This document shows, in pieces, positions 14,439 to 47,977 of a stretch of 64,000 nt of DNA (the first letter of the stretch is position 1; each line of letters opens with the position of its first letter). The DNA comes from Minisyncoccota bacterium (GTDB taxonomy: Bacteria > Patescibacteriota > Minisyncoccia > Phycocordibacterales > BOKC01), in the NCBI GenBank assembly GCA_030583745.1, contig CP129473.1, forward strand, positions 268,551 to 332,550, written 5' to 3'. Under the pieces are notes generated by a model that worked only from the letters and a program-made list of their open reading frames with translations, was not told the origin of the DNA and made no database searches. Both the position numbers and the translations under genes were made by a program.

Positions 14439-15398
14439 ATGACCAACTCAAATAATAAAAGTGCTCTACCCCACCTTGAAGATTTTCTTCTTTTCATCCA
14501 ATCAAATAATTATTCAAAAGAAACTTTATATAATTATGAAAGAGATCTCAAAACTTTTGAAAGATTTCTAGAAGAAGAATTTAAAGGACTCCCCTTTTCA
14601 AAAGTCACTAAAAGGACGATCGAACAATACAAGGCGTATTTGAACTCTACTGACAGAAAAACTGCCGAAGGGTCCGGCGCGCAAAAAAATCTCAAAAGCG
14701 GTTCTATAAACCGCAACCTAAGCTCGCTTAGAAGATATCTGTCGTATCTTATAGATATGGATTATGAATCTCCGATCGCCCCAGGCGCTATCAAGCTGTT
14801 GAGAATGGAGAAAAAGCATCCGCAAGTTTCCGAACTCGAAGAGCTGACTAGTTTGATTGAAGCCCCGATGAAATTTGAAAAAAACAAAAAAGTTGCCCTG
14901 CGCAACCGCGCGGCTTTGGAAACACTTTTTGCCTCTGGTATGCGTATTTCAGAACTAATATCATTAAAAATTATCCAGCTTGATAAAACTGGTCGAATCT
15001 TCATAGAGGGCAAGGGTAAAAAACAACGATTCGTCTATCTAACAGAAAGGGCTAAAAAACATATAGACAATTATTTGAAAGTTAGAGCCGATGACTCTCC
15101 TTTTCTCTTTATTGCAAGCAGAGGACAAAATGCTGGCGACAAAAACAAACACATATCGGCAAACTACCTTCAGATGAAAATAAAAAAATATCGGGAACTT
15201 TTGGGCATAAACGTTCCAACAAGCGCTCATTCATTACGTCACGGTTTTGCTACGTATTTGGCCGAGCAAGGTGCCAACCCGGCCGCCATCCAGATTCTTT
15301 TAGGCCATGAGTCACTTGATACTACGACAAGATACGTCCACGCTTCAGACAAATATGCCGAAAGCACTCACCGCAAATTCCACCCACTTAAAGACTAA
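14439..15398 (+). CDS. Tyrosine site-specific recombinase (XerC/XerD/phage integrase family)
   Basis: C-terminal catalytic motifs R...HxxR...Y (LRHGFATYLAEQGANPAAIQILLGHESLDTTTRYVH). N-terminal SAM-like core-binding domain. Confidence 0.8.
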   Translation: MTNSNNKSALPHLEDFLLFIQSNNYSKETLYNYERDLKTFERFLEEEFKGLPFSKVTKRTIEQYKAYLNSTDRKTAEGSGAQKNLKSGSINRNLSSLRRYLSYLIDMDYESPIAPGAIKLLRMEKKHPQVSELEELTSLIEAPMKFEKNKKVALRNRAALETLFASGMRISELISLKIIQLDKTGRIFIEGKGKKQRFVYLTERAKKHIDNYLKVRADDSPFLFIASRGQNAGDKNKHISANYLQMKIKKYRELLGINVPTSAHSLRHGFATYLAEQGANPAAIQILLGHESLDTTTRYVHASDKYAESTHRKFHPLKD

Positions 15399-36963: not shown

Positions 36964-37036
36964 TGCGGGTCCAGCAGGACTTGAACCTGCAGTCCGGGAT
37001 TTGGAGTCCCGTGGTTTACCAATTAACCGATGGACC
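36964..37036 (-). tRNA. tRNA-Trp (anticodon CCA)
   Basis: Reverse complement folds as GGGTCCA...anticodon loop CTCCAAA...T-loop TTCAAGT...TGGACCC-G. Confidence 0.85.
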
Positions 37037-37679
37037 CTTTCATATACTCTCTGGCTATAGCCAATAAATCTTGAGCCAGACGAGCATCATAATATCGAAT
37101 ATTAGCACAACCTTGATAATTTTTCCTTACCCTCTTTCCTCCATTATTTTTCTTATAGGATTTCATAAACTGACCTTGAGGAATCTTTGTTATTCTTGAC
37201 CAGAAAGCTTTCTGTGTTTTTTCACTATGATAATTATGTAGATGAATACAAACTCTGAATTTTTTCTCGTTTAAAACGAAAGAAGCTCTTAAAAGTTTTA
37301 GAAAAGTAGAAATCAAATTAGGGTCTGAATTGATAAAACCAAAATATGAATCATTTTTTACCCCTTCACACCAATAAATAACAGCGCATATAACCTTTTT
37401 TGATTCTTTGTCTAGATCTACTACTTTTAAAATATCTAGAGCTTTTTGTTTTGATTCATCCAGGCGCGCTCTTTTCTTTGCTCTAAGAACTTCTTGGGAG
37501 GCAATTTGTCCTCTTGTATATTTTTTTCTTAACAACTCTTTCGCTTCATCAGATAATTCTACGTCCCTTACCCATAAAGATACAGAGCTTTTCGAAACAT
37601 TTAAGTTATCCGAAATTTCTTTAAGTGAAAATCCTTTTCCCCTCAACTGCACCGCTTTGTGCCTTTCTTTTAATTTCAT
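37023..37679 (-). CDS. HTH-domain protein, possibly LAGLIDADG-like homing-endonuclease fold
   Basis: N-terminal sigma-70 region-4-like HTH (GFSLKEISDNLNVSKSSVSLWVRD). Central AVIYWCEGVK resembles a degenerate LAGLIDADG helix. The 3' end overlaps tRNA-Trp by 14 nt. Confidence 0.4.
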   Translation of the reverse strand: MKLKERHKAVQLRGKGFSLKEISDNLNVSKSSVSLWVRDVELSDEAKELLRKKYTRGQIASQEVLRAKKRARLDESKQKALDILKVVDLDKESKKVICAVIYWCEGVKNDSYFGFINSDPNLISTFLKLLRASFVLNEKKFRVCIHLHNYHSEKTQKAFWSRITKIPQGQFMKSYKKNNGGKRVRKNYQGCANIRYYDARLAQDLLAIAREYMKGSIG

Positions 37680-37798: not shown

Positions 37799-37957
37799 CT
37801 ATTTCTTGGTTTCTTTATGCACCTGCCTTTTTCTGCAGGTATTGCAATATTTTTTAAGTTCAATCTTCCGCTCCACCAATTTCTTATTCTTGGAGGACCG
37901 GTAGTTAATATTTTTGCACTTACTGCAAGCAAGTTTTATTAATCTGTCTTGACTCAT
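37799..37957 (-). CDS. rpmG: 50S ribosomal protein L33 (52 aa; missed by the 60-aa ORF track)
   Basis: MSQDRLIKLACSKCKNINYRSSKNKKLVERKIELKKYCNTCRKRQVHKETKK. This is the canonical L33 C4 zinc-ribbon pattern. Confidence 0.8.
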   Translation of the reverse strand: MSQDRLIKLACSKCKNINYRSSKNKKLVERKIELKKYCNTCRKRQVHKETKK

Positions 37958-38065
37958 GTTACTAGGTTTATTAAGCTCTAGGCTTTAGGCACTAGGAATT
38001 TTTATTAAAGCTAAAGAATAATAGAAAATGTCTAAAAAAGCAACTAGATGTATCCGTCCAGCACA

Positions 38066-38368
38066 TATGAGACTGCTTTGCTGATAATATACTAAAAATA
38101 TACTGCATCGGAATATTATCAAGGAAATTCCTTGATAAGGACATAAGGATATATGATGTTGAATATTATCAAGGAATTTTAAGGATGAATTAAATTATCA
38201 AACAATCTATGACGGCCGTCATAGATTGTTTGATGATTTCTGAAACTGGCATGTTATCTTTTTTGAATACATTAAAAAAACTGCTAAAAAAACCTGTATG
38301 TATTTTTTTGCAAATTTACATATAAGACTTTAAATTAAAGTCTTATATGTATCTGAACTTATGCACTA
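38066..38368. repeat. Left copy of ~300-bp inverted repeat module (contains three internal palindromes)
   Basis: Reverse complement matches 47128-47416 almost base for base. Internal palindromes are at 38116-38138 (TTATCAAGGAAATTCCTTGATAA), 38199-38232 (34-bp perfect CAAACAATCTATGACGGCCGTCATAGATTGTTTG) and 38318-38350 (ACATATAAGACTTTAAATTAAAGTCTTATATGT). Confidence 0.85.
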
Positions 38369-39565
38369 GACATAAAATCTTTTAATCAAAGGATTAATTC
38401 TAGTGATTATTTCATAGTTTGTGGTGTCAGCAAGCCGAGCTAGCTCGTCAGCCGAAACTTCCTCCCCACTTTGCCTTCCTAAAATCACCACCTCATCACC
38501 TATTCTAGGGTTTCGGATTTTGCCTGCCTGCCGGAGCTTTGACGCGGGCAGGGGGTTAGAGTTTGGGGAAATGCCTGATACGTCGACGGCAATCATATCC
38601 ATAGACACCCTGCCTAAAACTCGGCACTTTTTGCCGCCAACTAAAACCCAACCAATAGACGAGAGCGAACGCGGAAAACCGTGCCAGTAGCCAATCGGGC
38701 AAATCGCGACCAAAGAATCTTTTGTGAGCGTCTCGGTTAGGTCATAACCAATTTTTGATCCCTTCGGCAATTTTTTAATCTCCCCCACCACAGTCTTCCA
38801 AGACAAAACCGGCTGTAATTTTAATTTATCTTTGCAAAAAGCTTCAACTTCCGGCGAAGGCCAGAGGCCGTACATTGCGATTCCGATTCTCACCAAATCA
38901 AAATGTGTATCTGGAAAAATTAAAGTGCCGGAACTGGCGGCTGCATGCTTGATTGGGTTAAATCCCACTTCTTCAAATGCATTAACCCACTTTTTGAATT
39001 CTTCTAGCTGACTGTAAGTATATTTTGGAAATGAAGGGTTTTTGGCCGCCGCAAAATGAGTATAGAGACCCTCGATCTCAACATTTAAGGCCTGACGATT
39101 GACTTTTAACTGGTTGAGAATTTTTGGCAAATCAGACACAAAAAACCCCTGACGTCCCATTCCAGTATCAACTTTTATATGAAGCTTTGCCGGCTTCTTT
39201 ACCTTTATTTTTTTTAAAGCATCTAAAACTTCAAAAGAAGGGACTGTGATACTGATATCATTTTCAATCGCCAGCTTTAACATTTCTGGTAGAGTGTGTC
39301 CAAGAACCAGAATCGGCTTTTTGATTCCGGCTTTCCGTAAAGCAAGGGCTTCAATGACCGAGTCGACACCGAGCCAATCAATACCGAGCCAACTTATTTC
39401 TTTCGAAAAGTCAATAATTCCGTGTCCGTAAGCGTTTGATTTAACGACAGACATCAAGCGACATTTTTTTGGAACTATTGAGCGAAAAACTTGATAGTTA
39501 TTTTTCAGAGCTTTTTTATCAACTTCTATCCAAGTCCTCAATCCAGCTCTTTTTCTTTTATCCAT
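38366..39565 (-). CDS. alr: Alanine racemase
   Basis: PLP-binding VVKSNAYGHG motif near the N-terminus. Two-domain size. The stop codon lies inside the left repeat module. Confidence 0.8.
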   Translation of the reverse strand: MDKRKRAGLRTWIEVDKKALKNNYQVFRSIVPKKCRLMSVVKSNAYGHGIIDFSKEISWLGIDWLGVDSVIEALALRKAGIKKPILVLGHTLPEMLKLAIENDISITVPSFEVLDALKKIKVKKPAKLHIKVDTGMGRQGFFVSDLPKILNQLKVNRQALNVEIEGLYTHFAAAKNPSFPKYTYSQLEEFKKWVNAFEEVGFNPIKHAAASSGTLIFPDTHFDLVRIGIAMYGLWPSPEVEAFCKDKLKLQPVLSWKTVVGEIKKLPKGSKIGYDLTETLTKDSLVAICPIGYWHGFPRSLSSIGWVLVGGKKCRVLGRVSMDMIAVDVSGISPNSNPLPASKLRQAGKIRNPRIGDEVVILGRQSGEEVSADELARLADTTNYEIITRINPLIKRFYV

Positions 39566-39608
39566 AATTAACACCAATTTATCAAAAAAACGGTTAACAA
39601 ACAACAAA

Positions 39609-39636
39609 GCACCCCCGCGTCTCGGCGGGGGTTTTC
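39609..39636. terminator. GC-rich hairpin terminator (ACCCCCGC-gtctcg-GCGGGGGT, T-run)
   Basis: Seen directly. Separates alr from the high-GC cassette. Confidence 0.5.
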
Positions 39637-40007
39637 AGAAGAAACAAACCAGAAAGAAAATGGTTGTGATGGAAAAACCGAGAAAAAGTCCGAGGATAAA
39701 GCAGAACTTCCCTCGGTGTTTGAAGACTCTGTCATACCGCGACCGATCCTCTGTATAATCCATATTTCTTTCCTCCTTTCTAAAATGGAGAGTACCATAA
39801 AAAAACCGAAAAATAAAACGAGTCAAATTCTGGTGCACGATATTAAAGATAGTTCGAACGCATTTCGCCGCCGCAGGCGGCGGGGAGGCCACCAAAAAAT
39901 CGGAGCGGCTTCGCCGCGCACTTTGACAATTTCACATGCTTCTTTTGCGGCAAACTATTTTGAGTTCGCGAAGCGAACACAATTTCAGTATAGAAAATTT
40001 TTAATGG

Positions 40008-40053
40008 GCTGAAAAGAAAAGACCCGTCGCAAGTTGTTAGCTCACGACGGGTC
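40008..40053 (-). terminator. Rho-independent terminator of the high-GC secreted-protein gene
   Basis: GACCCGTCG-(15 nt)-CGACGGGTC followed, on the minus strand, by TTTTCTTTTC. Confidence 0.5.
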
Positions 40054-40079
40054 AATGACCTTGTGGAGGAACGTCCGTT

Positions 40080-40646
40080 TCAGCCACGCCTGTCGAAGAT
40101 CTTGACAACCTTCTTCTGCTCCGAGTTCCACTCCCAGCGTTGGCTGAGGTTGTCCTCGTTGTGCAGACGACTCATGGCGAGGTCGAGCTCGGCGATGGCG
40201 AAACTGATCGCGCGATCGCTGAACGGCTGTACCACTCCTTCGTCGGCCGGGCAAGGCTCGAACTTCCAGCCACTTGCGGTGCGAATGACCGAGTTACACC
40301 CGAACTCCGAGTACTCTGGGTGCCGGCCGACCAGTTCGTGATTGCCGCAGTAGAACACGCGATCCCACTTGCCATCGTTGTCGTAGTCGTGCCCTGTGAT
40401 CCCGACGTAGCTCGGACTGTCGACAAGCCTCAGATGAACCAGTCGACGGAAACCGTAGCCATGATCGGCTTCGTCGATCTCCACGTTGTAGGCGATGTTC
40501 TCCGACTGGAGCTCTCCGTGATAGAGATTCCAGGTCACGAGATGCTCGCCCCGCTCGTCGATGACCGCCGTGTAGATCATGGCACCCACCGCGACGACGA
40601 GCGCGATGGCGGCCAGGCCCAAGGCCAGATTGTTTCGGTTGCGCAT
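40080..40646 (-). CDS. Hypothetical secreted/membrane-anchored protein (high-GC, foreign-looking)
   Basis: GGAGGT RBS 7 nt before the ATG. N-terminal hydrophobic anchor. Markedly GC-rich. No known domain. Confidence 0.55.
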   Translation of the reverse strand: MRNRNNLALGLAAIALVVAVGAMIYTAVIDERGEHLVTWNLYHGELQSENIAYNVEIDEADHGYGFRRLVHLRLVDSPSYVGITGHDYDNDGKWDRVFYCGNHELVGRHPEYSEFGCNSVIRTASGWKFEPCPADEGVVQPFSDRAISFAIAELDLAMSRLHNEDNLSQRWEWNSEQKKVVKIFDRRG

Positions 40647-40678
40647 GGCATACCTCCTATCGTTTGGAATGTGCTGGC

Positions 40679-40699
40679 GATGAGTCACCATGACTCATC
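40679..40699. promoter_or_regulatory. Perfect 10-bp-arm palindrome GATGAGTCAC-c-ATGACTCATC upstream of the high-GC gene
   Basis: Seen in the sequence ~35-55 nt upstream of the start codon. Geometry is operator-like. Confidence 0.35.
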
Positions 40700-40906
40700 T
40701 ATGAACCAAAATAAGCTTAGCATAAAACATTTTCTATGTCAAGGTCGAGCAGATAAACAAAAACAGCCCTCTTGGGCCGTTAAGATGAATTCAAAAAATT
40801 TCTTTTTTCAACCGAGAACCGCGTTTTAAATTTCGTGCCCAAAGAGCCGTACGATTTAATAGCCGAGGCCGCGAATGCGGCCGAGGCAAACTTGACTTTT
40901 CCATTC

Positions 40907-40993
40907 TGGTGCGCCGGGTAGGATTCGAACCTACGTAGCCCTAAGGGCGACAGATTTACAGTCTGTTGCGATTGACCACTCCGCCACCGACGC
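40907..40993 (-). tRNA. tRNA-Tyr (anticodon GTA), CCA encoded
   Basis: Reverse complement: GCGTCGG...anticodon loop CTGTAAA...long variable arm...GGTTCGAATCC...CCGGCGCACCA. Confidence 0.85.
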
Positions 40994-41065
40994 AAAAAGA
41001 ACAAAGAACACTAAAAAAATACTATAAGTTCAGAGAAAAGACAATTAAATTTTAATTTCTTAGCT

Positions 41066-43768
41066 TTAGCTCTTTGTTAGCGCCTCATCCATAAACGGGC
41101 TTTTTTCTACCAAACTCCCCTTTCGGCCTTTTTTGATGTCAAACTTAAATTCCTTGTTCAAGACATCAACCACCACAAACCCACCCCTAACCAAACCTTT
41201 GGAAATAATTAGTGAAGCGACAGGAGAAAGAATCTTGTTCTGGATCAAGCGCCTCATCGGCCGAGCGCCGTACTGTGGGTCAAAGCCGATTTCTGCCAAA
41301 TATTCAATCGCCGCCGGGGTTACTTCAAGTTTAATCTCTTTCTGTTCAAGGCGTTTCGCAATCTCCCCAACTTGAATTTGTGCAATTTGCTTTATAGCTT
41401 CTTTGCTTAAAGTGTCAAAGACAATAATATCGTCCAGACGATTCAAAAATTCCGGCTTGAAATGATCTTTCAAGCTTTCCAATACTTTTTCTTTCATTTC
41501 TTGATAATTTCCAAATCCATCTTTCTCACCGCCAAAGCCAATTTTTTGCATCCGATCAATATATTGAGCGCCGACGTTAGAAGTCAGAACAATAACGGTA
41601 TTTCTAAAATTAATTGTCCGACCTTTGGCATCGGTCAGTCGTCCGTTGTCTAAAATCTGAAGCATGATATTAAAAACTTCCGGATGAGCTTTTTCAATTT
41701 CATCAAATAAGACAACGGAGTAAGGCCTGTGTCTTATTTTTTCAGTAAAAGTTCCGCCTTCTTCAAAACCAACGTAGCCCGGTGGCGCGCCGATAATTTT
41801 TGAAACAGAATGTTTTTCCATATATTCCGACATATCAACTCGAATCAAAGCTTTTTCATTGTCAAACATAAACTCAGCGAGGGCTTTGGTCAATTCAGTT
41901 TTACCAACTCCAGTCGGACCTAAAAAGATAAAAGAACCAATTGGTCTTTCCGGATCAGCAATACCGGCGCGAGAGCGTTTGACGGTATCGGTGATTCTCT
42001 TTACCGCTTCATCTTGACCGATAATACGATTTTTCAACCAATCTTCCATCCTATTCAATTTTTCAGCTTCCGCTTCAAGCATCTTTGAAACCGGCACTCC
42101 AGTCCAACGAGAAACAACCTCGGCAATATCAGTTTCAGTAATTTCTTCTTTTAAAATCCGGCGGAAACTTTGGAGTTTCTTTAGACGCTTTGTTCTTTGA
42201 TCCAACTCCTTTTCTAGAGCTGGTATCTTGCCGTATCTAATTTCGGCCACCAGAGTTAAGTCCGCTTGGCTTTCGGCTTTTTCGGCTTGAATTTTCAAAT
42301 CATCAATTTCTTTCTTGACCGACTTCATTTCCGAAACTGTTTCTTTTTCATTTTTCCACTTTAGCTCAATCTCAGAGGTTTTTTCTTTCAAATCTGCAAT
42401 TTCTTTTTCTATTTCTTTTATTCTGGCTTTGACCTTGCTACTTTTGGAGTCTTTGGAAGACTTGGCTTCTTTCGTTAGAGCCTGTCTTTCTATTTCTAGC
42501 TTCATTATTTTTGACTGTGCTTCTTCAAGAATTGGCGGCATATTTTCCAAAGAAATTTTCAACTGTGAGGCCGCTTCATCTATCAAATCAACCGCCTTGT
42601 CTGGCAAAGATCTGTCAGTGATATAGCGACTTGAAAGATTGACAGCCGAGATAATCGCGTCATCAGTTATCCTAACACCATGATATAGCTCGTACTTTTC
42701 TTTAAGACCACGAAGAATTGTAACAGCATCTTCGATTGAAGGTTCGCTGACAAAAACCGGTTGAAAGCGCCTGGTCAAAGCCGGGTCTTTCTCTATGTAT
42801 TTTTGATATTCTTTCAGGGTGGTCGCGCCAATTGCCCGAAGTTCTCCTTGCGCAAGCGGAGGTTTCAACATATTTGACGCATCAATTGATCCTTCGGCTG
42901 CGCCAGCACCTACAATTGTATGGATTTCATCAATAAAAAGAATTATCTTACCGTTTGAACTTTCTATTTCTTTCAGAATTTTTTTCAACCGATCCTCAAA
43001 TTCTCCGCGGTATTTGGTTCCGGCAACCAAAAGCCCAAGATCCAAAGAAACAAGCTCTTTGTCTTTTAATGATTCAGGCACGTCGCCTTTTGCAATTTTT
43101 ATTGCCAAACCTTCGGCAATAGCGGTCTTGCCAACTCCGGCTTCTCCAATCAATATCGGATTGTTTTTTTTCCTGCGAGACAAAATCTGAATTATTCTTG
43201 AAATTTCAATATCTCTGCCAATCACCGGATCTAATTTGTTTTCCGAAGCCATTTTCGTCAAACTTCTAGTATATTTCGGCAAGAATCTGTATTTTTTAGT
43301 CTGACCAACATCAGTAATCTTGCTATGACGTAATTCCTCAAGAACTTTCAAAACCCTGTCTTTGTCTATTTTAAACTTAGACAATATTTCTTTAGCAACA
43401 GACGGCACCTCGCAAGCGGCAATAAACAAATGTTCCGTTGATACAAATTGGTCGTTTAAGCCCGAAGCGATTTTTGGGCTCAACTCTATGGTTTGAGCCA
43501 GCTCCGGAGTTATGTAGATTTGATAAGAAGGCGCCATGGTTGTTGAGCCTTCCGGCGCTTCGGTCGCGTCCAGAATAGAATCTGTCAAAAGAATGGTGTC
43601 CACTTCCAAACGCTCCAAAATTGAAAACACGATACTCTCTTCCTGCAAGATTAAAGCGGCCAGCAAATGAAGCGGGTTCACATGATTTTGACCTCGCTCA
43701 ATTGCCATCTCGTGAGCTTTTCTGATGGCTTCTTTGGCCTTAGTTGTAAATTGATTGAATGGCGGCAT
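41066..43768 (-). CDS. clpB: ATP-dependent chaperone ClpB
   Basis: Clp_N repeat, two AAA+ modules ([15 protein letters not shown] and [15 protein letters not shown]) and a coiled-coil M-domain. 900 aa. Confidence 0.9.
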
Positions 43769-43853
43769 ATTTAAAAAAGATTAAAACAAAAAAATCTTAA
43801 TCTAAATTGTAAGTTTTTTTAATATGTTTGTCAAATTTAATAATCTAATCTAG

Positions 43854-44621
43854 TTAGTTTCCTTTTTCAGCTTTCAATACATTTATCGGAATAAAAATCG
43901 AACCTCCTACTGAATTTAGACCAACGACTTCCCCCTTCAGATTGACTATAGGGCTCAAACTCTCGTTGTTCAAAATATCAGTTTCAATTGAAGAAAATTT
44001 TGAGACCGCACCTTCTTCGTTTCTAGACAAACTCAAAATCCGTCCGATTGAGACAGAAGTCTTAGATTCTCCCCTCATCGAAATAACCGTTTGTCCGAGC
44101 TGAAGACTGTCTGAATTGGCCAAAACCGCCGGCTTCATTACCGAATCTCCCGGCACCTGCTCGGTCTTAAAAAAAGAGAAGTGTGTAGTATTGAGAGTGC
44201 TGTTGATTTTGGAAATTGAACCATCTGGCAAAACCGCTTCGAAAAACAAACCTCCTGCGGTATCAAGCTTGCCAGTCGCAATAAGCCCGTCTTTGTCCAA
44301 AAGCAAACCCAAACCGACAAAAACTTTTTCTTCGCCAGAAACTCTAAAGATTCTCACCAAACTCGGTTCGTTATTAGCAATAGCTTCTATAACCAAATCC
44401 TCCTCTTGAACAACAACTGTCACTTCTCTTGTCACCACATCTCTAGTCTGTTGAGGCACAATCGTCTCGACAGTTCTCTCAACGACTCTGTTTACTGTTT
44501 GAGTTACGGTCGGCGGAGCTTCTACTAAAAGAGAGTAGGTCATAATACTTGTTGCGACTGAACCAACAAAACTGACTAAAAGTGCCAATAAGATTATTTG
44601 GTTTTTATTAAGATCTTCCAT
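43854..44621 (-). CDS. Membrane-anchored trypsin-like (HtrA-like) domain protein, possibly catalytically degenerate
   Basis: N-terminal TM. C-terminal region aligns to the S1C fold (…NESLSPIVNLKGEVVGLNS…), but a canonical catalytic His is not evident. Confidence 0.4.
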   Translation of the reverse strand: MEDLNKNQIILLALLVSFVGSVATSIMTYSLLVEAPPTVTQTVNRVVERTVETIVPQQTRDVVTREVTVVVQEEDLVIEAIANNEPSLVRIFRVSGEEKVFVGLGLLLDKDGLIATGKLDTAGGLFFEAVLPDGSISKINSTLNTTHFSFFKTEQVPGDSVMKPAVLANSDSLQLGQTVISMRGESKTSVSIGRILSLSRNEEGAVSKFSSIETDILNNESLSPIVNLKGEVVGLNSVGGSIFIPINVLKAEKGN

Positions 44622-44744
44622 ATTTTAAATTATAGCAAAAAACAAAAAAAGATATACAGTGTTTGCAAACCCCTAATCCAAAATCTGTTGATAAATTAAT
44701 GTTTTACATTTAAATCGGCAAAGGATAAAATACATTCCATAAAA

Positions 44745-45239
44745 ATGGAAAAATTTACAACACTCAACAACGAAACATTCTTTATTTTGGCACTAGCATT
44801 ATCATTCGTCGTCGTGTTTTCGCTTTTTTTATGGATTTGGCGGTTAGAAAGAAAAATTAAAAAAATTTTGGGCGGAGGAGTGAGCGCAAATATTGAATCT
44901 GTAATTCTAGAAAACCACAAAAGAATAAAAAGGGTGGAAGAGCAACAAAAAGTAACTATCGAGAGATTAAGTCTGATAGAAAACAAATTAAGAAAAAGTG
45001 TCAGGGCAATAGAAACCATCAGATTTAATCCTTTCAAGGGGGTTGGTGTTGGTGGTAATCAGAGCTTCTCTTCGGCTTTCTTGAACGAAGATGGGGACGG
45101 ATTAGTCTTGTCAGGACTATACTTGAGAGATCGGGTCTCAATTTACGCCAAACCACTAAAAAACCTACAAGCAGAATTTGAACTTTCCGAAGAAGAAAAA
45201 TTGGCTATTAAAAAAGCTCTGGACTCTACTAAAAACTAA
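44745..45239 (+). CDS. Hypothetical protein with N-terminal TM (DUF4446-like)
   Basis: RFNPFKGVGVGGNQSFSSAFLNEDGDGLVLSGLY block. Confidence 0.45.
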   Translation: MEKFTTLNNETFFILALALSFVVVFSLFLWIWRLERKIKKILGGGVSANIESVILENHKRIKRVEEQQKVTIERLSLIENKLRKSVRAIETIRFNPFKGVGVGGNQSFSSAFLNEDGDGLVLSGLYLRDRVSIYAKPLKNLQAEFELSEEEKLAIKKALDSTKN

Positions 45240-45314
45240 ATACAGGTTTTGCGAATTAGGTTTTTCAAGCCGATTTTTGTTATTGGACAATAACACTAAA
45301 AAATGTAAACTCTA

Positions 45315-46844
45315 TTGAATATGCCCGAAAAAAAACAGAAAAAACAAGGAACGAAACAGCGCTCGCCTATTGTTGTGGTTATGGGGCATATTGATCATGG
45401 CAAATCAACACTTCTTGATTACATCAGGAAAACCAAAATTACAGAAAACGAAAAAGGTGGAATAACACAACATATGGGTGCTTACGAAGTTGAAACTGCA
45501 CCAAACAAAAAAATTACTTTTCTAGACACCCCGGGGCATGAGGCCTTTCAAGCCATAAGATCGCGAGGGGCCAAAGTCGCTGACATCGCTGTATTGGTTG
45601 TGGCGGCAGACGACGGCGTCAAACCCCAAACCCTTGAAGCACTGAAGTGTATTCGCGAAGAAGAAATGCCCTTTGTCGTCGCCATCAACAAAATCGATAA
45701 ACCAGACGCAAATATAGAAAAAACAAAAAATGATCTAGCCGAAAACGAAATTTTTTTGGAAGGATTCGGCGGAGATGTGCCTTTCGCCGCCATCTCTGCA
45801 AAAACCGGAGAAAATATAAACGAGCTTTTAGATTTACTCTGGCTTATGGCTGAAATGGAAGAATTGAAGGGTGATCCAGAAATCTTGGCCGAGGGCGTTG
45901 TTCTTGAAAGCCATTTAGATCCCAAAAAGGGTGTGGCGGCGACGCTCGTCATCAAAGACGGAACTTTAAAAAAAGGATTGTTTGTTGCGACTAGCGAAGC
46001 GTTAGCCCCGGTCCGAATTATGGAAAGCTTTCTTGGAGAAAATATTTCGGAAGCCAGTTTCTCAAATCCAATTAGATTAGTTGGCTGGAATGTAATGCCA
46101 AAAGTCGGAGAAATTTTTAAAGCTTTTAAAACCAAAAAGGAAGCCGAAGTGTTTATTATCTCATCAAAATTGATTGGAAAAAACCCCGACCGAAGTGAGA
46201 ATGGTGCAAGAGAGCAAAACAGAAAAACAATAGTTCCGGTAATAATAAAAGCTGATACCGCCGGAGGTGTCGAAGGGGTTGAACATGAATTGAAAAAACT
46301 TGGAAACGAACATCTGGAGTTTAAAATTTTAAGCTCCGGAATCGGAATAATAACCGAAAAAGACGTGCAGAAAGCCACCGCCGGGCAACAAAAAGGCACA
46401 ATAATCGGCTTTAACGTAAAAATAGACAATTCGGCAAAAAATTTGGCGGAGAGGGACGAAATAATGATAAAAAATTTTGAAATAATTTATAAAATCACTG
46501 AATGGTTGAAAACTGATCTCTCGCAATATTTGCCGAAAATTGAGGTAGAGGAGATCACGGGTAAAGCCAAGATTCTTAAACTCTTTGGCGAACAAAAGGG
46601 ACGCCAAATAGTCGGGGGAAAAGTTCTGGAAGGAGAGATTCCGGCTGACGGACTATTTAGAATTATCCGCCGAGAAAATATTTTAGGAGACGGTCGGATA
46701 AAAGAATTACAACAGAAAAAAGAAAAATCTGGAAAAGTGGAGGCCGGCAACGAATTCGGAGCCCTTTTGGAAGCAAAACAGGAGGTAGCCGCCGGTGACA
46801 CTTTAGAAATTTATAAGAAGGTCTTCCAGACAATAAAAATCTGA
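45315..46844 (+). CDS. infB: Translation initiation factor IF-2 (short form)
   Basis: G-domain motifs GHIDHGKST, DTPGHEAF and NKID. Beta-barrel domains II and IV. Confidence 0.9.
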   Translation: MNMPEKKQKKQGTKQRSPIVVVMGHIDHGKSTLLDYIRKTKITENEKGGITQHMGAYEVETAPNKKITFLDTPGHEAFQAIRSRGAKVADIAVLVVAADDGVKPQTLEALKCIREEEMPFVVAINKIDKPDANIEKTKNDLAENEIFLEGFGGDVPFAAISAKTGENINELLDLLWLMAEMEELKGDPEILAEGVVLESHLDPKKGVAATLVIKDGTLKKGLFVATSEALAPVRIMESFLGENISEASFSNPIRLVGWNVMPKVGEIFKAFKTKKEAEVFIISSKLIGKNPDRSENGAREQNRKTIVPVIIKADTAGGVEGVEHELKKLGNEHLEFKILSSGIGIITEKDVQKATAGQQKGTIIGFNVKIDNSAKNLAERDEIMIKNFEIIYKITEWLKTDLSQYLPKIEVEEITGKAKILKLFGEQKGRQIVGGKVLEGEIPADGLFRIIRRENILGDGRIKELQQKKEKSGKVEAGNEFGALLEAKQEVAAGDTLEIYKKVFQTIKI

Positions 46845-47134
46845 TGCGGCCTTACAAAAAAGAAAAGGTGGAAGAGATTTTGCACCATGCGGCCGCTGAA
46901 TTTTTTAGAAAAGAATCAGGACCGCAATCGCTTTTGACGGTCGTTGGTGTCAATTTTGACGAAAAGAAAAAAAGAGCAGTTATTCTTTTCAGTATTTTGC
47001 CTGTAGAAAAAACAAAATCAGCAATTGATTTTATTGAGAGACAGAAAAGAGATTTTATTGACTATTTAAAGAAGAATACAAAAATGAAAATTATTCCGTT
47101 TATTTCTTTTGAGTTGTCACCAATAATTGCATAA
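46844..47134 (+). CDS. rbfA: Ribosome-binding factor A
   Basis: 96-aa KH-like protein immediately downstream of infB with an overlapping stop/start. Conserved synteny. Confidence 0.6.
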   Translation: MRPYKKEKVEEILHHAAAEFFRKESGPQSLLTVVGVNFDEKKKRAVILFSILPVEKTKSAIDFIERQKRDFIDYLKKNTKMKIIPFISFELSPIIA

Positions 47135-47416
47135 GTTCAGATACATATAAGACTTTAAATTAATCTTATATGTAAATTTGCAAAAAAATACATACAGGTT
47201 TTTTTAGCAGTTTTTTTAATGTATTCAAAAAAGATAACATGCTAGTTTCAGAAATCATCAAACAATCTATGACGGCCGTCACAGATTGTTTGATAATTTA
47301 ATTCATCCTTAAAATTCCTTGATAACATTCAACATCATATATCCTTATGTCCTTATCAAGGAATTTCCTTGATAATATTCTGATGCAATATATTTTTAGT
47401 ACGTTGTCAGCAAAGG
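47128..47416. repeat. Right copy of ~300-bp inverted repeat module
   Basis: Near-identical to the reverse complement of 38066-38368. Begins inside the rbfA stop codon. Contains the 34-bp palindrome (one mismatch) at 47259-47292. Confidence 0.85.
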
Positions 47417-47448
47417 GGTCTCGTATGCGCTGGACTAGTACAATAATT

Positions 47449-47477
47449 TGACTATCGGCTTTTTGCTCAATAGAATA
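47449..47477 (+). promoter_or_regulatory. Sigma70-like promoter for the tRNA cluster
   Basis: TTGACT, 17-bp spacer, then TAGAAT, about 15 nt before tRNA-Cys. Confidence 0.45.
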
Positions 47478-47493
47478 GTAACTGTCGATAGGT

Positions 47494-47565
47494 GGTGGCG
47501 TAGACAAGTGGTAAGTCAAGAGTCTGCAAAACTCTTATGCGGCGGTTCGATTCCGCCCGCCACCT
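47494..47565 (+). tRNA. tRNA-Cys (anticodon GCA)
   Basis: Acceptor GGTGGCG/CGCCACC, anticodon stem AGAGT/ACTCT with loop CTGCAAA, T-arm GGCGG-TTCGATT-CCGCC. Confidence 0.8.
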
Positions 47566-47570
47566 CATGT

Positions 47571-47652
47571 GCCCGGGTGGCGTAATTGGTAGCCGCAATC
47601 GACTTAAGATCGATCGCCGTAAGGCATGCGAGTTCGAGTCTCGCCCCGGGCA
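47571..47652 (+). tRNA. tRNA-Leu (anticodon TAA)
   Basis: Acceptor GCCCGGG/CCCGGGC, anticodon loop CTTAAGA, long variable arm. Confidence 0.85.
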
Positions 47653-47654
47653 TC

Positions 47655-47770
47655 AGACCGCCCATAGCTGTCTTGGTAGATATGAAGTTAGGTAACCGCT
47701 ATAGCTGTCTTGGTAGATATGAAGTTAGATGACCGCCCATAGCTGTTTTGGTAGATATGAAGTTAGATGA
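47655..47770 (+). repeat. Three tandem ~38-bp copies of the 5' end of tRNA-Lys fused to a common 22-nt tail
   Basis: The unit (at)gaccgcccatagctgtcttggtagatatgaagttag occurs three times. The first 14-16 nt equal the 5' end of the intact tRNA-Lys that follows. Confidence 0.75.
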
Positions 47771-47843
47771 CCGCCCATAGCTCAGTTGGCAGAGCAGTCG
47801 CCTCTTAAGCGAACGGTCGTAGGTTCAAATCCTACTGGGCGGA
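47771..47843 (+). tRNA. tRNA-Lys (anticodon CTT)
   Basis: Acceptor CCGCCCA/TGGGCGG, D-arm GCTC-AGTTGGCA-GAGC, anticodon loop CTCTTAA, T-arm GTAGG-TTCAAAT-CCTAC. Confidence 0.7.
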
Positions 47844-47883
47844 TAGCCATGATTTAGAGTTTAGAAATTAGAAATTAAGTTTT

Positions 47884-47965
47884 GGGCGAGTGGCGTAATT
47901 GGTAGCCGCGCTGCGCTTAGGACGCAGTGGAGTAATCCGTGGAGGTTCGAGTCCTCTCTCGCCCA
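47884..47965 (+). tRNA. tRNA-Leu (anticodon TAG)
   Basis: Acceptor GGGCGAG/CTCGCCC, anticodon stem CTGCG/CGCAG with loop CTTAGGA, long variable arm. Confidence 0.85.
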
Positions 47966-47977
47966 TAAAATATCAAA

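Follow-up and report, generated by a model that had tools for sequence, protein, structure and literature searches.

The stretch of DNA analysed here, 64 kb of contig CP129473.1 of a Minisyncoccota bacterium (hereafter the window, whose positions serve as coordinates), carries two copies of a module of about 316 bp, which probably represents a transposable element, in opposite orientation on either side of 8.8 kb of housekeeping genes. The left copy lies between alr and rpmG, the latter being followed by a gene for a 218-aa helix-turn-helix (HTH) protein and by tRNA-Trp. The right copy lies between rbfA, with infB upstream, and a tRNA-Cys/Leu/Lys/Leu cluster. These gene assignments were made in a preliminary description of the same DNA and proved correct. 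That description had also recognised an inverted repeat, placed at 38066-38368 and 47128-47416. The repeat is real but its extent differs: in an inverted-repeat search, 38049-38365 (317 bp) is the reverse complement of 47128-47442 (315 bp), and blastn between the two arms aligns 310 bp at 95.2% identity (E=8e-141). Instead of the one or two substitutions counted earlier, the copies differ in a MAFFT alignment by 16 substitutions and an indel of 2 nt. Of these substitutions, 11 fall within the promoter-proximal 62 nt, nearest the outer flank; the interiors are about 98% identical, and the outer ends have diverged. The element has a G+C content of 28%, compared with 40.6% for the whole window, and no third copy or fragment was found by blastn within the window.

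Both copies were said to begin inside the stop codon of the flanking gene. In fact the right copy provides both the last codon (GCA) and the TAA stop of rbfA, and the left copy begins directly past the stop codon of alr. As described earlier, the two copies have the same orientation relative to their upstream gene, and each contains three palindromes in a fixed order (H1, P2, and P3 with its half-site). The motif of P3 can also be written TTATCAAGGAAWTTCCTTGATAA, and its palindrome and half-site can pair as a 15-bp stem on either strand. In P2, the single asymmetric mismatch of the outer arms is mirrored between strains: the window (47252-47299) has AAATCATC...GATAATTT, and loci L014 (3255-3302) and L015 have AAATTATC...GATGATTT. 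The pattern would fit a flip of the outer arms, or a conversion of one arm by the other, with the inner asymmetry unchanged.

The boundaries of the copies carry the signature of insertion. Exact 5-bp direct repeats bracket both copies at homologous boundaries, ATAAT on the right and TCTAG on the left. At fixed boundaries in this window, an exact 5-mer would arise by chance with a probability of about 0.002 per copy. In element orientation the right flanks read ...CCAATAAT / TGCATAAGTTCAG...GCTGGACTAGTACA / ATAAT TTGACT... and the left flanks ...ATGTCTAG / TGCATAAGTTCAG...GCTGGACGGATACA / TCTAG TTGCTT.... When the element and one copy of the repeat are removed in silico, the sites that remain resemble those found in relatives: on the right, RbfA ends in ...PII-TGA and its stop codon overlaps the TTGACT -35 box, and on the left the TAG of alr abuts TTGCTT. 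Read from the sequence, the right insertion changed the RbfA terminus from ...PII to ...PIIA and gave it a new TAA stop. The element itself has the termini TG...CA and, in a terminus-anchored alignment, an imperfect terminal inverted repeat of about 27 bp (20/27 with one gap; TGCATAAGTTCAGATACATATAAGACT vs TGTATCCGTCCAG-CACATATGAGACT). The score of this repeat in the left copy, 12 over 27 nt, was reached by none of 5000 shuffles and none of 5000 random window segments, and the score of 7 in the right copy by six of 5000 shuffles. In a search of the window and all fetched loci, the end pattern TGYATNNGTYCAG(N0-2)ACATATRAGAC was confined to the four element termini.

Relatives of this bacterium have neither insertion. 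Searching with InfB returned only proteins of Patescibacteria, the candidate phyla radiation (CPR), the nearest being 70% (P0002, P0003) and 62% (P0007) identical, and the comparison of empty sites rests on such distant relatives (InfB identity 62-70%). In the loci with 70% InfB identity, L025-L028 and L029, tRNA-Cys lies 33-69 bp downstream of rbfA, whose stop codon overlaps the -35 box (TTGACT) of a promoter of the form TTGACT-17-TAGAAT. At L030, with 62% identity, the alr stop directly precedes a promoter-like sequence conserved with the rpmG promoter of the window. Neither blastn nor nhmmer detected any trace of the module in L025-L030, and its absence from both orthologous sites argues for a lineage-specific insertion at each. 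The neighbourhood as such is rearranged in the relatives: the tRNA Cys-Leu-Lys-Leu cluster of L030 (12163-12731) is inverted relative to rbfA, and in L025 (568-1808) alr lies on the opposite strand, behind an open reading frame (ORF) for a 54-aa membrane protein.

Miniature inverted-repeat transposable elements (MITEs) are defined by their small size (below some 600-800 bp), terminal repeats, target duplications, lack of coding capacity and empty orthologous sites. The module measures 315 or 317 bp, has no transposase ORF, ends in terminal repeats, is flanked by 5-bp duplications and is missing from the orthologous sites of relatives. Together with the TG...CA termini and the reconstructed empty sites, these features support one of the possibilities raised in the preliminary description, a non-autonomous mobile element. 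We consider it likely that the module is a MITE-like element of about 316 bp that was inserted twice in this CPR species, and apparently it constitutes a new, species-restricted MITE family. A DDE-type transposase acting in trans would have made 5-bp staggered cuts and inserted the element twice. Each insertion would have landed between a stop codon (of alr or rbfA) and the -35 hexamer of the next promoter (of rpmG or the tRNA-Cys cluster). Where the stop codon touches the next -35 box, just that boundary would tolerate an insertion, so that identical placement could arise without targeting; we infer that selection, rather than a target preference, explains where the copies lie. Since the two insertions have opposite chromosomal orientations, 8.8 kb of housekeeping genes are now enclosed by a 316-bp inverted repeat. 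A terminator or insulator effect of H1 or P2 on read-through from alr and rbfA, if there is one, would be a side effect. The target duplications and terminal inverted repeats led us to reject an IS200/IS605-type or REP-type (repetitive extragenic palindrome) origin. A composite transposon or integrated island was rejected too, given that the inner 8.8 kb (alr...clpB...infB-rbfA) is syntenic with relatives. Table 1 gives the positions of the element, its parts and its neighbours.

Table 1. Features of the two element copies and of the genes and promoters around them (window coordinates).
Feature	Position	Strand	Remarks
Left copy	38049..38365	-	317 bp; TGCAT end at 38365 adjoins alr, TACA end at 38049 adjoins rpmG promoter
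Right copy	47128..47442	+	315 bp; ends 5 bp ahead of -35 box of tRNA promoter
Target-site duplication, left copy, promoter side	38044..38048		CTAGA on + strand, TCTAG in element orientation
Target-site duplication, left copy, alr side	38366..38370		CTAGA; includes alr stop codon TAG
Target-site duplication, right copy, rbfA side	47123..47127		ATAAT; 7-nt match with preceding CA
Target-site duplication, right copy, promoter side	47443..47447		ATAAT, followed at once by -35 box TTGACT
Terminal inverted repeat, gene-proximal	47128..47154	+	TGCATAAGTTCAGATACATATAAGACT; identical sequence at 38339-38365 on minus strand
Terminal inverted repeat, promoter-proximal	47417..47442	-	Reverse complement TGTACTAGTCCAGCGCATACGAGACC; left equivalent 38049-38074 on + strand, TGTATCCGTCCAGCACATATGAGACT
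H1	38318..38350		33-bp AT-rich perfect palindrome; arm ACATATAAGAC belongs to terminal repeat; right copy 47143-47173 with 2-nt deletion
P2	38192..38239		24-nt arms, centre GACGGCCGTC, perfect 34-bp core 38199-38232; right copy 47252-47299, core 47259-47292
P3	38116..38188		23-bp palindrome TTATCAAGGAAATTCCTTGATAA (38116-38138) and half-site TTATCAAGGAA 50 bp off (38166-38176); right copy 47303-47375, palindrome 47353-47375
HTH gene	37023-37679	-	218-aa protein; left side, then tRNA-Trp
rpmG	37799-37957	-	Left side
Putative rpmG promoter	38015..38043	-	TTGCTT-17-TATTCT, hexamers read off the sequence, match below promoter-scan threshold; outside element; conserved in relative L030 directly after alr stop
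alr	38366-39607	-	Adjoins left copy
Segment between copies	38366..47127		8.8 kb: alr, variable island, tRNA-Tyr, clpB, trypsin-like protease, DUF4446, infB (short), rbfA; candidate invertible segment
rbfA	46844-47134	+	Adjoins right copy; infB upstream
Promoter of tRNA Cys-Leu-Lys-Leu	47448..47476	+	TTGACT-17-TAGAAT; just outside element; overlaps rbfA stop in relatives
tRNA-Cys/Leu/Lys/Leu cluster	47494-47966	+	Beyond right copy

Several observations weigh against a mobile element. To begin with, two copies are known, and none further came to light in 185,579 species genomes, JGI metagenome contigs, viral contigs, plasmids and phages. The scans of genome and metagenome contigs were probed with the P2 core, the fastest-evolving part of the element and a poor probe; the exact pattern had 0 matches in genome contigs and two in metagenome contigs, both from the right-site copy of the same species. 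Viral contigs had 0 matches to the P3 and P2 patterns, and BLAST of the element against plasmids and phages had none. The species has no representative in the set of 185,579, and a locus search of the genome contigs based on InfB gave distant, irrelevant loci only. Moreover, no transposase was found in the window, whose remainder consists entirely of housekeeping genes, and no autonomous relative with the same ends in the window and the fetched loci. The final 7 nt of the promoter-side end differ between the copies at three positions, always in a site-specific manner, which makes the exact end, and a duplication of 5 rather than 7 bp, somewhat uncertain. Both insertions have the same orientation to the flanking promoter and lie exactly at its -35 box. 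With n=2, this placement might reflect a function or a rule of targeting. H1 and P3 are invariant among the few strains seen; these motifs are too short and the strains too few for significance. In the literature on MITEs in Patescibacteria nothing relevant was found.

Once in place, the copies have exchanged sequence. Single-nucleotide polymorphisms (SNPs) that distinguish left from right occur in new combinations in other strains: next to tRNA-Cys, the copy in L014 and L015 has the variants of the left copy over its distal 60 nt, stopping short of the last 7 nt, and is right-like in its proximal part. A crossover within the element would leave distal variants on their own flank, and the mosaic is therefore due to gene conversion between the copies, which also accounts for an interior that stays nearly identical while one end drifts.

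The preliminary description had also suggested that the repeats could be a substrate for homologous inversion of the segment between them. The mosaic SNPs show that the copies exchange sequence. The inversion itself is plausible but unproven, and one contig speaks to it. L014 (JAANMV010007060.1) reads clpB-tRNA-Tyr-alr-element-tRNA-Cys with the unmatched flanks TCTAG...ATAAT, and its junction alr-element-tRNA-Cys is the one expected after inversion of the 8.8 kb; the window, L008 and L015 (JAANMT010005520.1) have rbfA-element-tRNA-Cys. L014, L015 and L002 are one strain (99.97% identical) in three sister short-read assemblies, and L002 ends exactly 99 nt into the element at both of its ends. 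The copies in this strain are probably near-identical (identical over at least 99 nt), and with such copies and short reads the assembler may have walked through the repeat into the wrong flank, leaving L014 possibly chimeric. The copies could serve as substrates for RecA-type recombination, and we regard a repeat-mediated inversion of the segment as possible. Both promoters lie outside the repeats, so that an inversion would not obviously switch expression; if it occurs, it would illustrate how repeats can generate structural polymorphism in a CPR population. A bolder proposal, which we hold to be doubtful, is that the pair is a working recombination switch, with both orientations of the segment present in populations, and that the element family perhaps targets the boundary in front of -35 hexamers. 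Contig L014 fits this proposal, as does the fact that both insertions occupy the same place, immediately 5' of TTG, but neither demonstrates it. If it were true, a flip would put different genes in line for read-through to the rpmG and tRNA operons and would also change how they are oriented to replication.

A different view of the module is that it is there for what it does. The preliminary description had proposed a duplicated terminator or insulator combined with a regulatory unit; stated fully, the module would terminate or insulate alr and rbfA, P2 and P3 would be operator palindromes, and a regulator such as the adjacent 218-aa HTH protein would co-regulate rpmG and the tRNA operons, perhaps after a mobile sequence had been domesticated. 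We find this unlikely, even though both copies stand directly upstream of promoters of the translation apparatus and in the same orientation, the palindromes are long and near-perfect, H1 and P3 are invariant among the variants seen, and the HTH gene lies 370 bp from the left copy. The hairpin H1 had been called terminator-like on account of T-runs behind it; an intrinsic terminator has a G+C-rich stem with a U-run directly behind it, whereas H1 is AT-rich and is followed by AAATTTGC rather than directly by a T-run. It is P2 (tail AATTTAATTC) that passes a loose consensus terminator scan, which counts for the proposal. Against the proposal stands the absence of the module in all relatives examined, in which these promoters function with no such sequence. 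Both promoters in the window lie outside the module, the motifs P2 and P3 are found nowhere else in the 64 kb and hence upstream of no other gene there, and the HTH family occurs also in relatives that have no module.

The divergence of the element points the same way. L008 and the right copy of the window differ at 20 of 322 positions (6.2%), compared with 3.9% at four-fold degenerate sites of the flanking genes and 1.1% in other intergenic DNA between the same two sequences. The supposed operator P2 is the most variable part, with changes at 6 of 48 positions in L008 (12.5%) and a rise in arm mismatches from 1-2 to 4. A divergence at or above the four-fold rate, our proxy for neutrality, gives no indication that the element as a whole is under purifying selection.

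Somewhat less probable than a regulatory role is an origin without any transposition, in which a single rearrangement (a staggered-break inversion or a replication-based inverted duplication) copied an intergenic region across 8.8 kb. Staggered-break inversions are known to leave inverted duplications at their breakpoints, the neighbourhood is prone to rearrangement in relatives, as the inverted tRNA cluster of L030 and the flipped alr of L025 illustrate, and just two copies are known. Such an event would, however, predict neither an exact 5-bp repeat around each copy nor terminal repeats at the boundaries of homology, and it leaves the origin of the first copy unexplained. In addition, the ancestral synteny is kept at both junctions (rbfA to tRNA-Cys, and alr to rpmG to tRNA-Trp), which argues for two insertions rather than an inversion.

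It is very improbable that the copies represent a small structured RNA gene or a gene encoding the peptide MTAVIDCLMISETGMLSFLNTLKKLLKKPVCIFLQIYI of 38 aa, such as a type I toxin-like locus. Both strands do fold better than shuffled sequence (z = -5.6 and -7.1), and the 38-aa ORF is open in both copies of the window as well as in L014 and L015. The strong fold, however, derives from the three DNA palindromes and is symmetric between the strands. The Rfam comparison suggested earlier gave no match to the element at the gathering score and, at E up to 10, just tRNAs and sub-threshold noise from microRNA hairpins. Candidates for an internal promoter are 9-of-12 matches only, no commoner than in shuffled sequence. 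All ORFs in the element are 50 aa or shorter, and the internal one of 38 aa has no Shine-Dalgarno sequence; it was rejected as coding since in L008 its C-terminus is frameshifted and the changes are mostly non-synonymous. The neutral level of divergence and the absence of the module from relatives likewise speak against a gene of either kind. A conserved riboswitch, small RNA or operator module was rejected for lack of an Rfam match, absence in relatives and the divergence of 6.2% vs 3.9% at four-fold sites, and an origin or terminus of replication because the window has no clean GC-skew switch and no DnaA-box-like repeats.

Finally, the junctions do not depend on a single assembly. They were recovered in at least five independent assemblies of this species: L008 spans the whole right copy, L014 and L015 span a copy, L016-L023 hold the left distal end, and L001-L007 hold both proximal ends. 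The short-read contigs that contain the exact RbfA or HTH protein are all shorter than 10 kb and all end inside the repeat, and those found through the HTH protein or a 253-aa protein all end inside or before the element and are uninformative on orientation. Neither the L33 nor the Alr protein had an exact match on record. Although the repeat breaks all short-read assemblies, an artefact such as duplicated or collapsed contig ends, which the preliminary description had named as a possible refutation, is hardly credible for copies that differ at 16 positions and an indel, have distinct unique flanks, and share their junctions with independent assemblies, L008 crossing one copy in full. The breaks, which fall at both sites and may give rise to ambiguous or chimeric joins, matter for the quality of metagenome-assembled genomes of this species.

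The surroundings of the copies have features of their own. Of the 218-aa protein (37023-37679, minus strand) only the N-terminal HTH is recognisable, and its gene overlaps tRNA-Trp by 15 nt. Homologues of 208-218 aa (about 30% identical) adjoin tRNA-Tyr and clpB in the relatives L025 and L030. The protein seems to represent a family that is conserved in CPR bacteria and associated with tRNA genes. It has no relative in the PDB, and NCBIfam gives just weak HTH matches to the N-termini of IS3 and IS630 transposases; a role as transposase or resolvase was rejected, as the match is limited to the N-terminal HTH and lies far below cut-offs. On the other side, the interval between tRNA-Leu(taa) and tRNA-Lys(ctt) contains three additional units of about 38 nt in tandem (47656-47812), which are diverged copies of the 5' half of tRNA-Lys. 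The L014/L015 strain has none of these units and a Leu-Lys spacing of 3 nt, and short-read contigs break at the units too.

Within the segment, strains vary far more in alr than in the remainder, with 4-39 amino-acid differences and a DNA identity as low as 90.6% in L004, compared with 98.5-99.8% elsewhere, which suggests recombination with a diverged allele beside the left element. Between alr and tRNA-Tyr lies a strain-variable island (39836-40907, with a 203-aa ORF at 40080-40691 that has no Pfam match). It is present in L001 and deleted in L005-L007, whereas L002 and L014 have an unrelated insert of 676 bp in its place, and it may mark an integration hotspot beside tRNA-Tyr; the G+C content is raised at 40-42 kb (0.47). 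Further away, the window contains a Xer-like tyrosine recombinase with Phage_integrase and SAM_1 domains (14439-15398, plus strand), the sole recombinase in the window, at a distance of 23 kb. Other genes have housekeeping functions (dnaK/dnaJ, aminoacyl-tRNA synthetase genes, murG/ftsW, dnaB, topA, relA/spoT, parB, gyrA), and genes resembling pilins of type IV secretion systems are found at about 52-55 kb.

The tiny, compact genomes of CPR bacteria (Patescibacteria) are believed to contain few mobile elements. A MITE with target duplications, if our interpretation is right, would mean that transposition has occurred in this lineage, and it would point to a spot where an element can persist even though the genome has hardly any intergenic space, namely between a stop codon and the next promoter. 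The element would be an ordinary kind of genome parasite, and the current understanding of gene regulation stands as it was.

How does the element compare with known systems? The resemblance to invertons, such as the fim switch, Hin and the invertible promoters of Bacteroides, ends with the inverted repeats that flank a segment. The repeats measure about 316 bp rather than 10-30 bp, the flanked segment holds whole operons instead of a promoter, and no serine or tyrosine invertase is adjacent, the one recombinase in the window being the Xer-like gene 23 kb away. A site-specific inverton was rejected because the repeats are long and an adjacent invertase is lacking. REPs and bacterial interspersed mosaic elements (BIMEs), which are mobilised by REP-associated tyrosine transposases (RAYT, IS200/IS605-like), are likewise palindromic, extragenic and placed right after stop codons. 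They are, however, 20-40 bp long, highly repeated and free of target duplications and terminal repeats; the element is ten times longer and has both, and was rejected as a REP or BIME on this ground.

Inversions by homologous recombination between copies of insertion sequences (IS), MITEs or rrn operons offer a closer parallel, in that inverted repeats of about 316 bp and 95-100% identity bracket a segment, gene conversion is evident, and one contig has a recombinant junction with unmatched target duplications. The segment here is only 8.8 kb long and made up of housekeeping genes, and its inversion is possible. As for the ends, TG...CA termini with target duplications of 3-5 bp are found in DDE transposons such as the IS3 family, IS21, Mu, and Tn7-like and Tn402-like elements. 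The element shares the 5'-TG...CA-3' termini and has a 5-bp duplication, but it contains no transposase gene and is not assigned to a family.

Bacterial MITEs, among them the Correia or NEMIS elements of Neisseria, RUP of Streptococcus pneumoniae and ERIC-type elements (enterobacterial repetitive intergenic consensus), differ from the element in number, two copies here compared with tens to hundreds in typical families, and in architecture, with three separate internal palindromes in place of one whole-element foldback. It has no sequence similarity to any described family, and no autonomous parent IS was found in the window. It resembles them in several respects: it is small, AT-rich and non-coding, has terminal inverted repeats, a short target duplication and strong hairpin potential, occupies intergenic positions beside stop codons and promoters, and is patchy among lineages, with empty orthologous sites in relatives.

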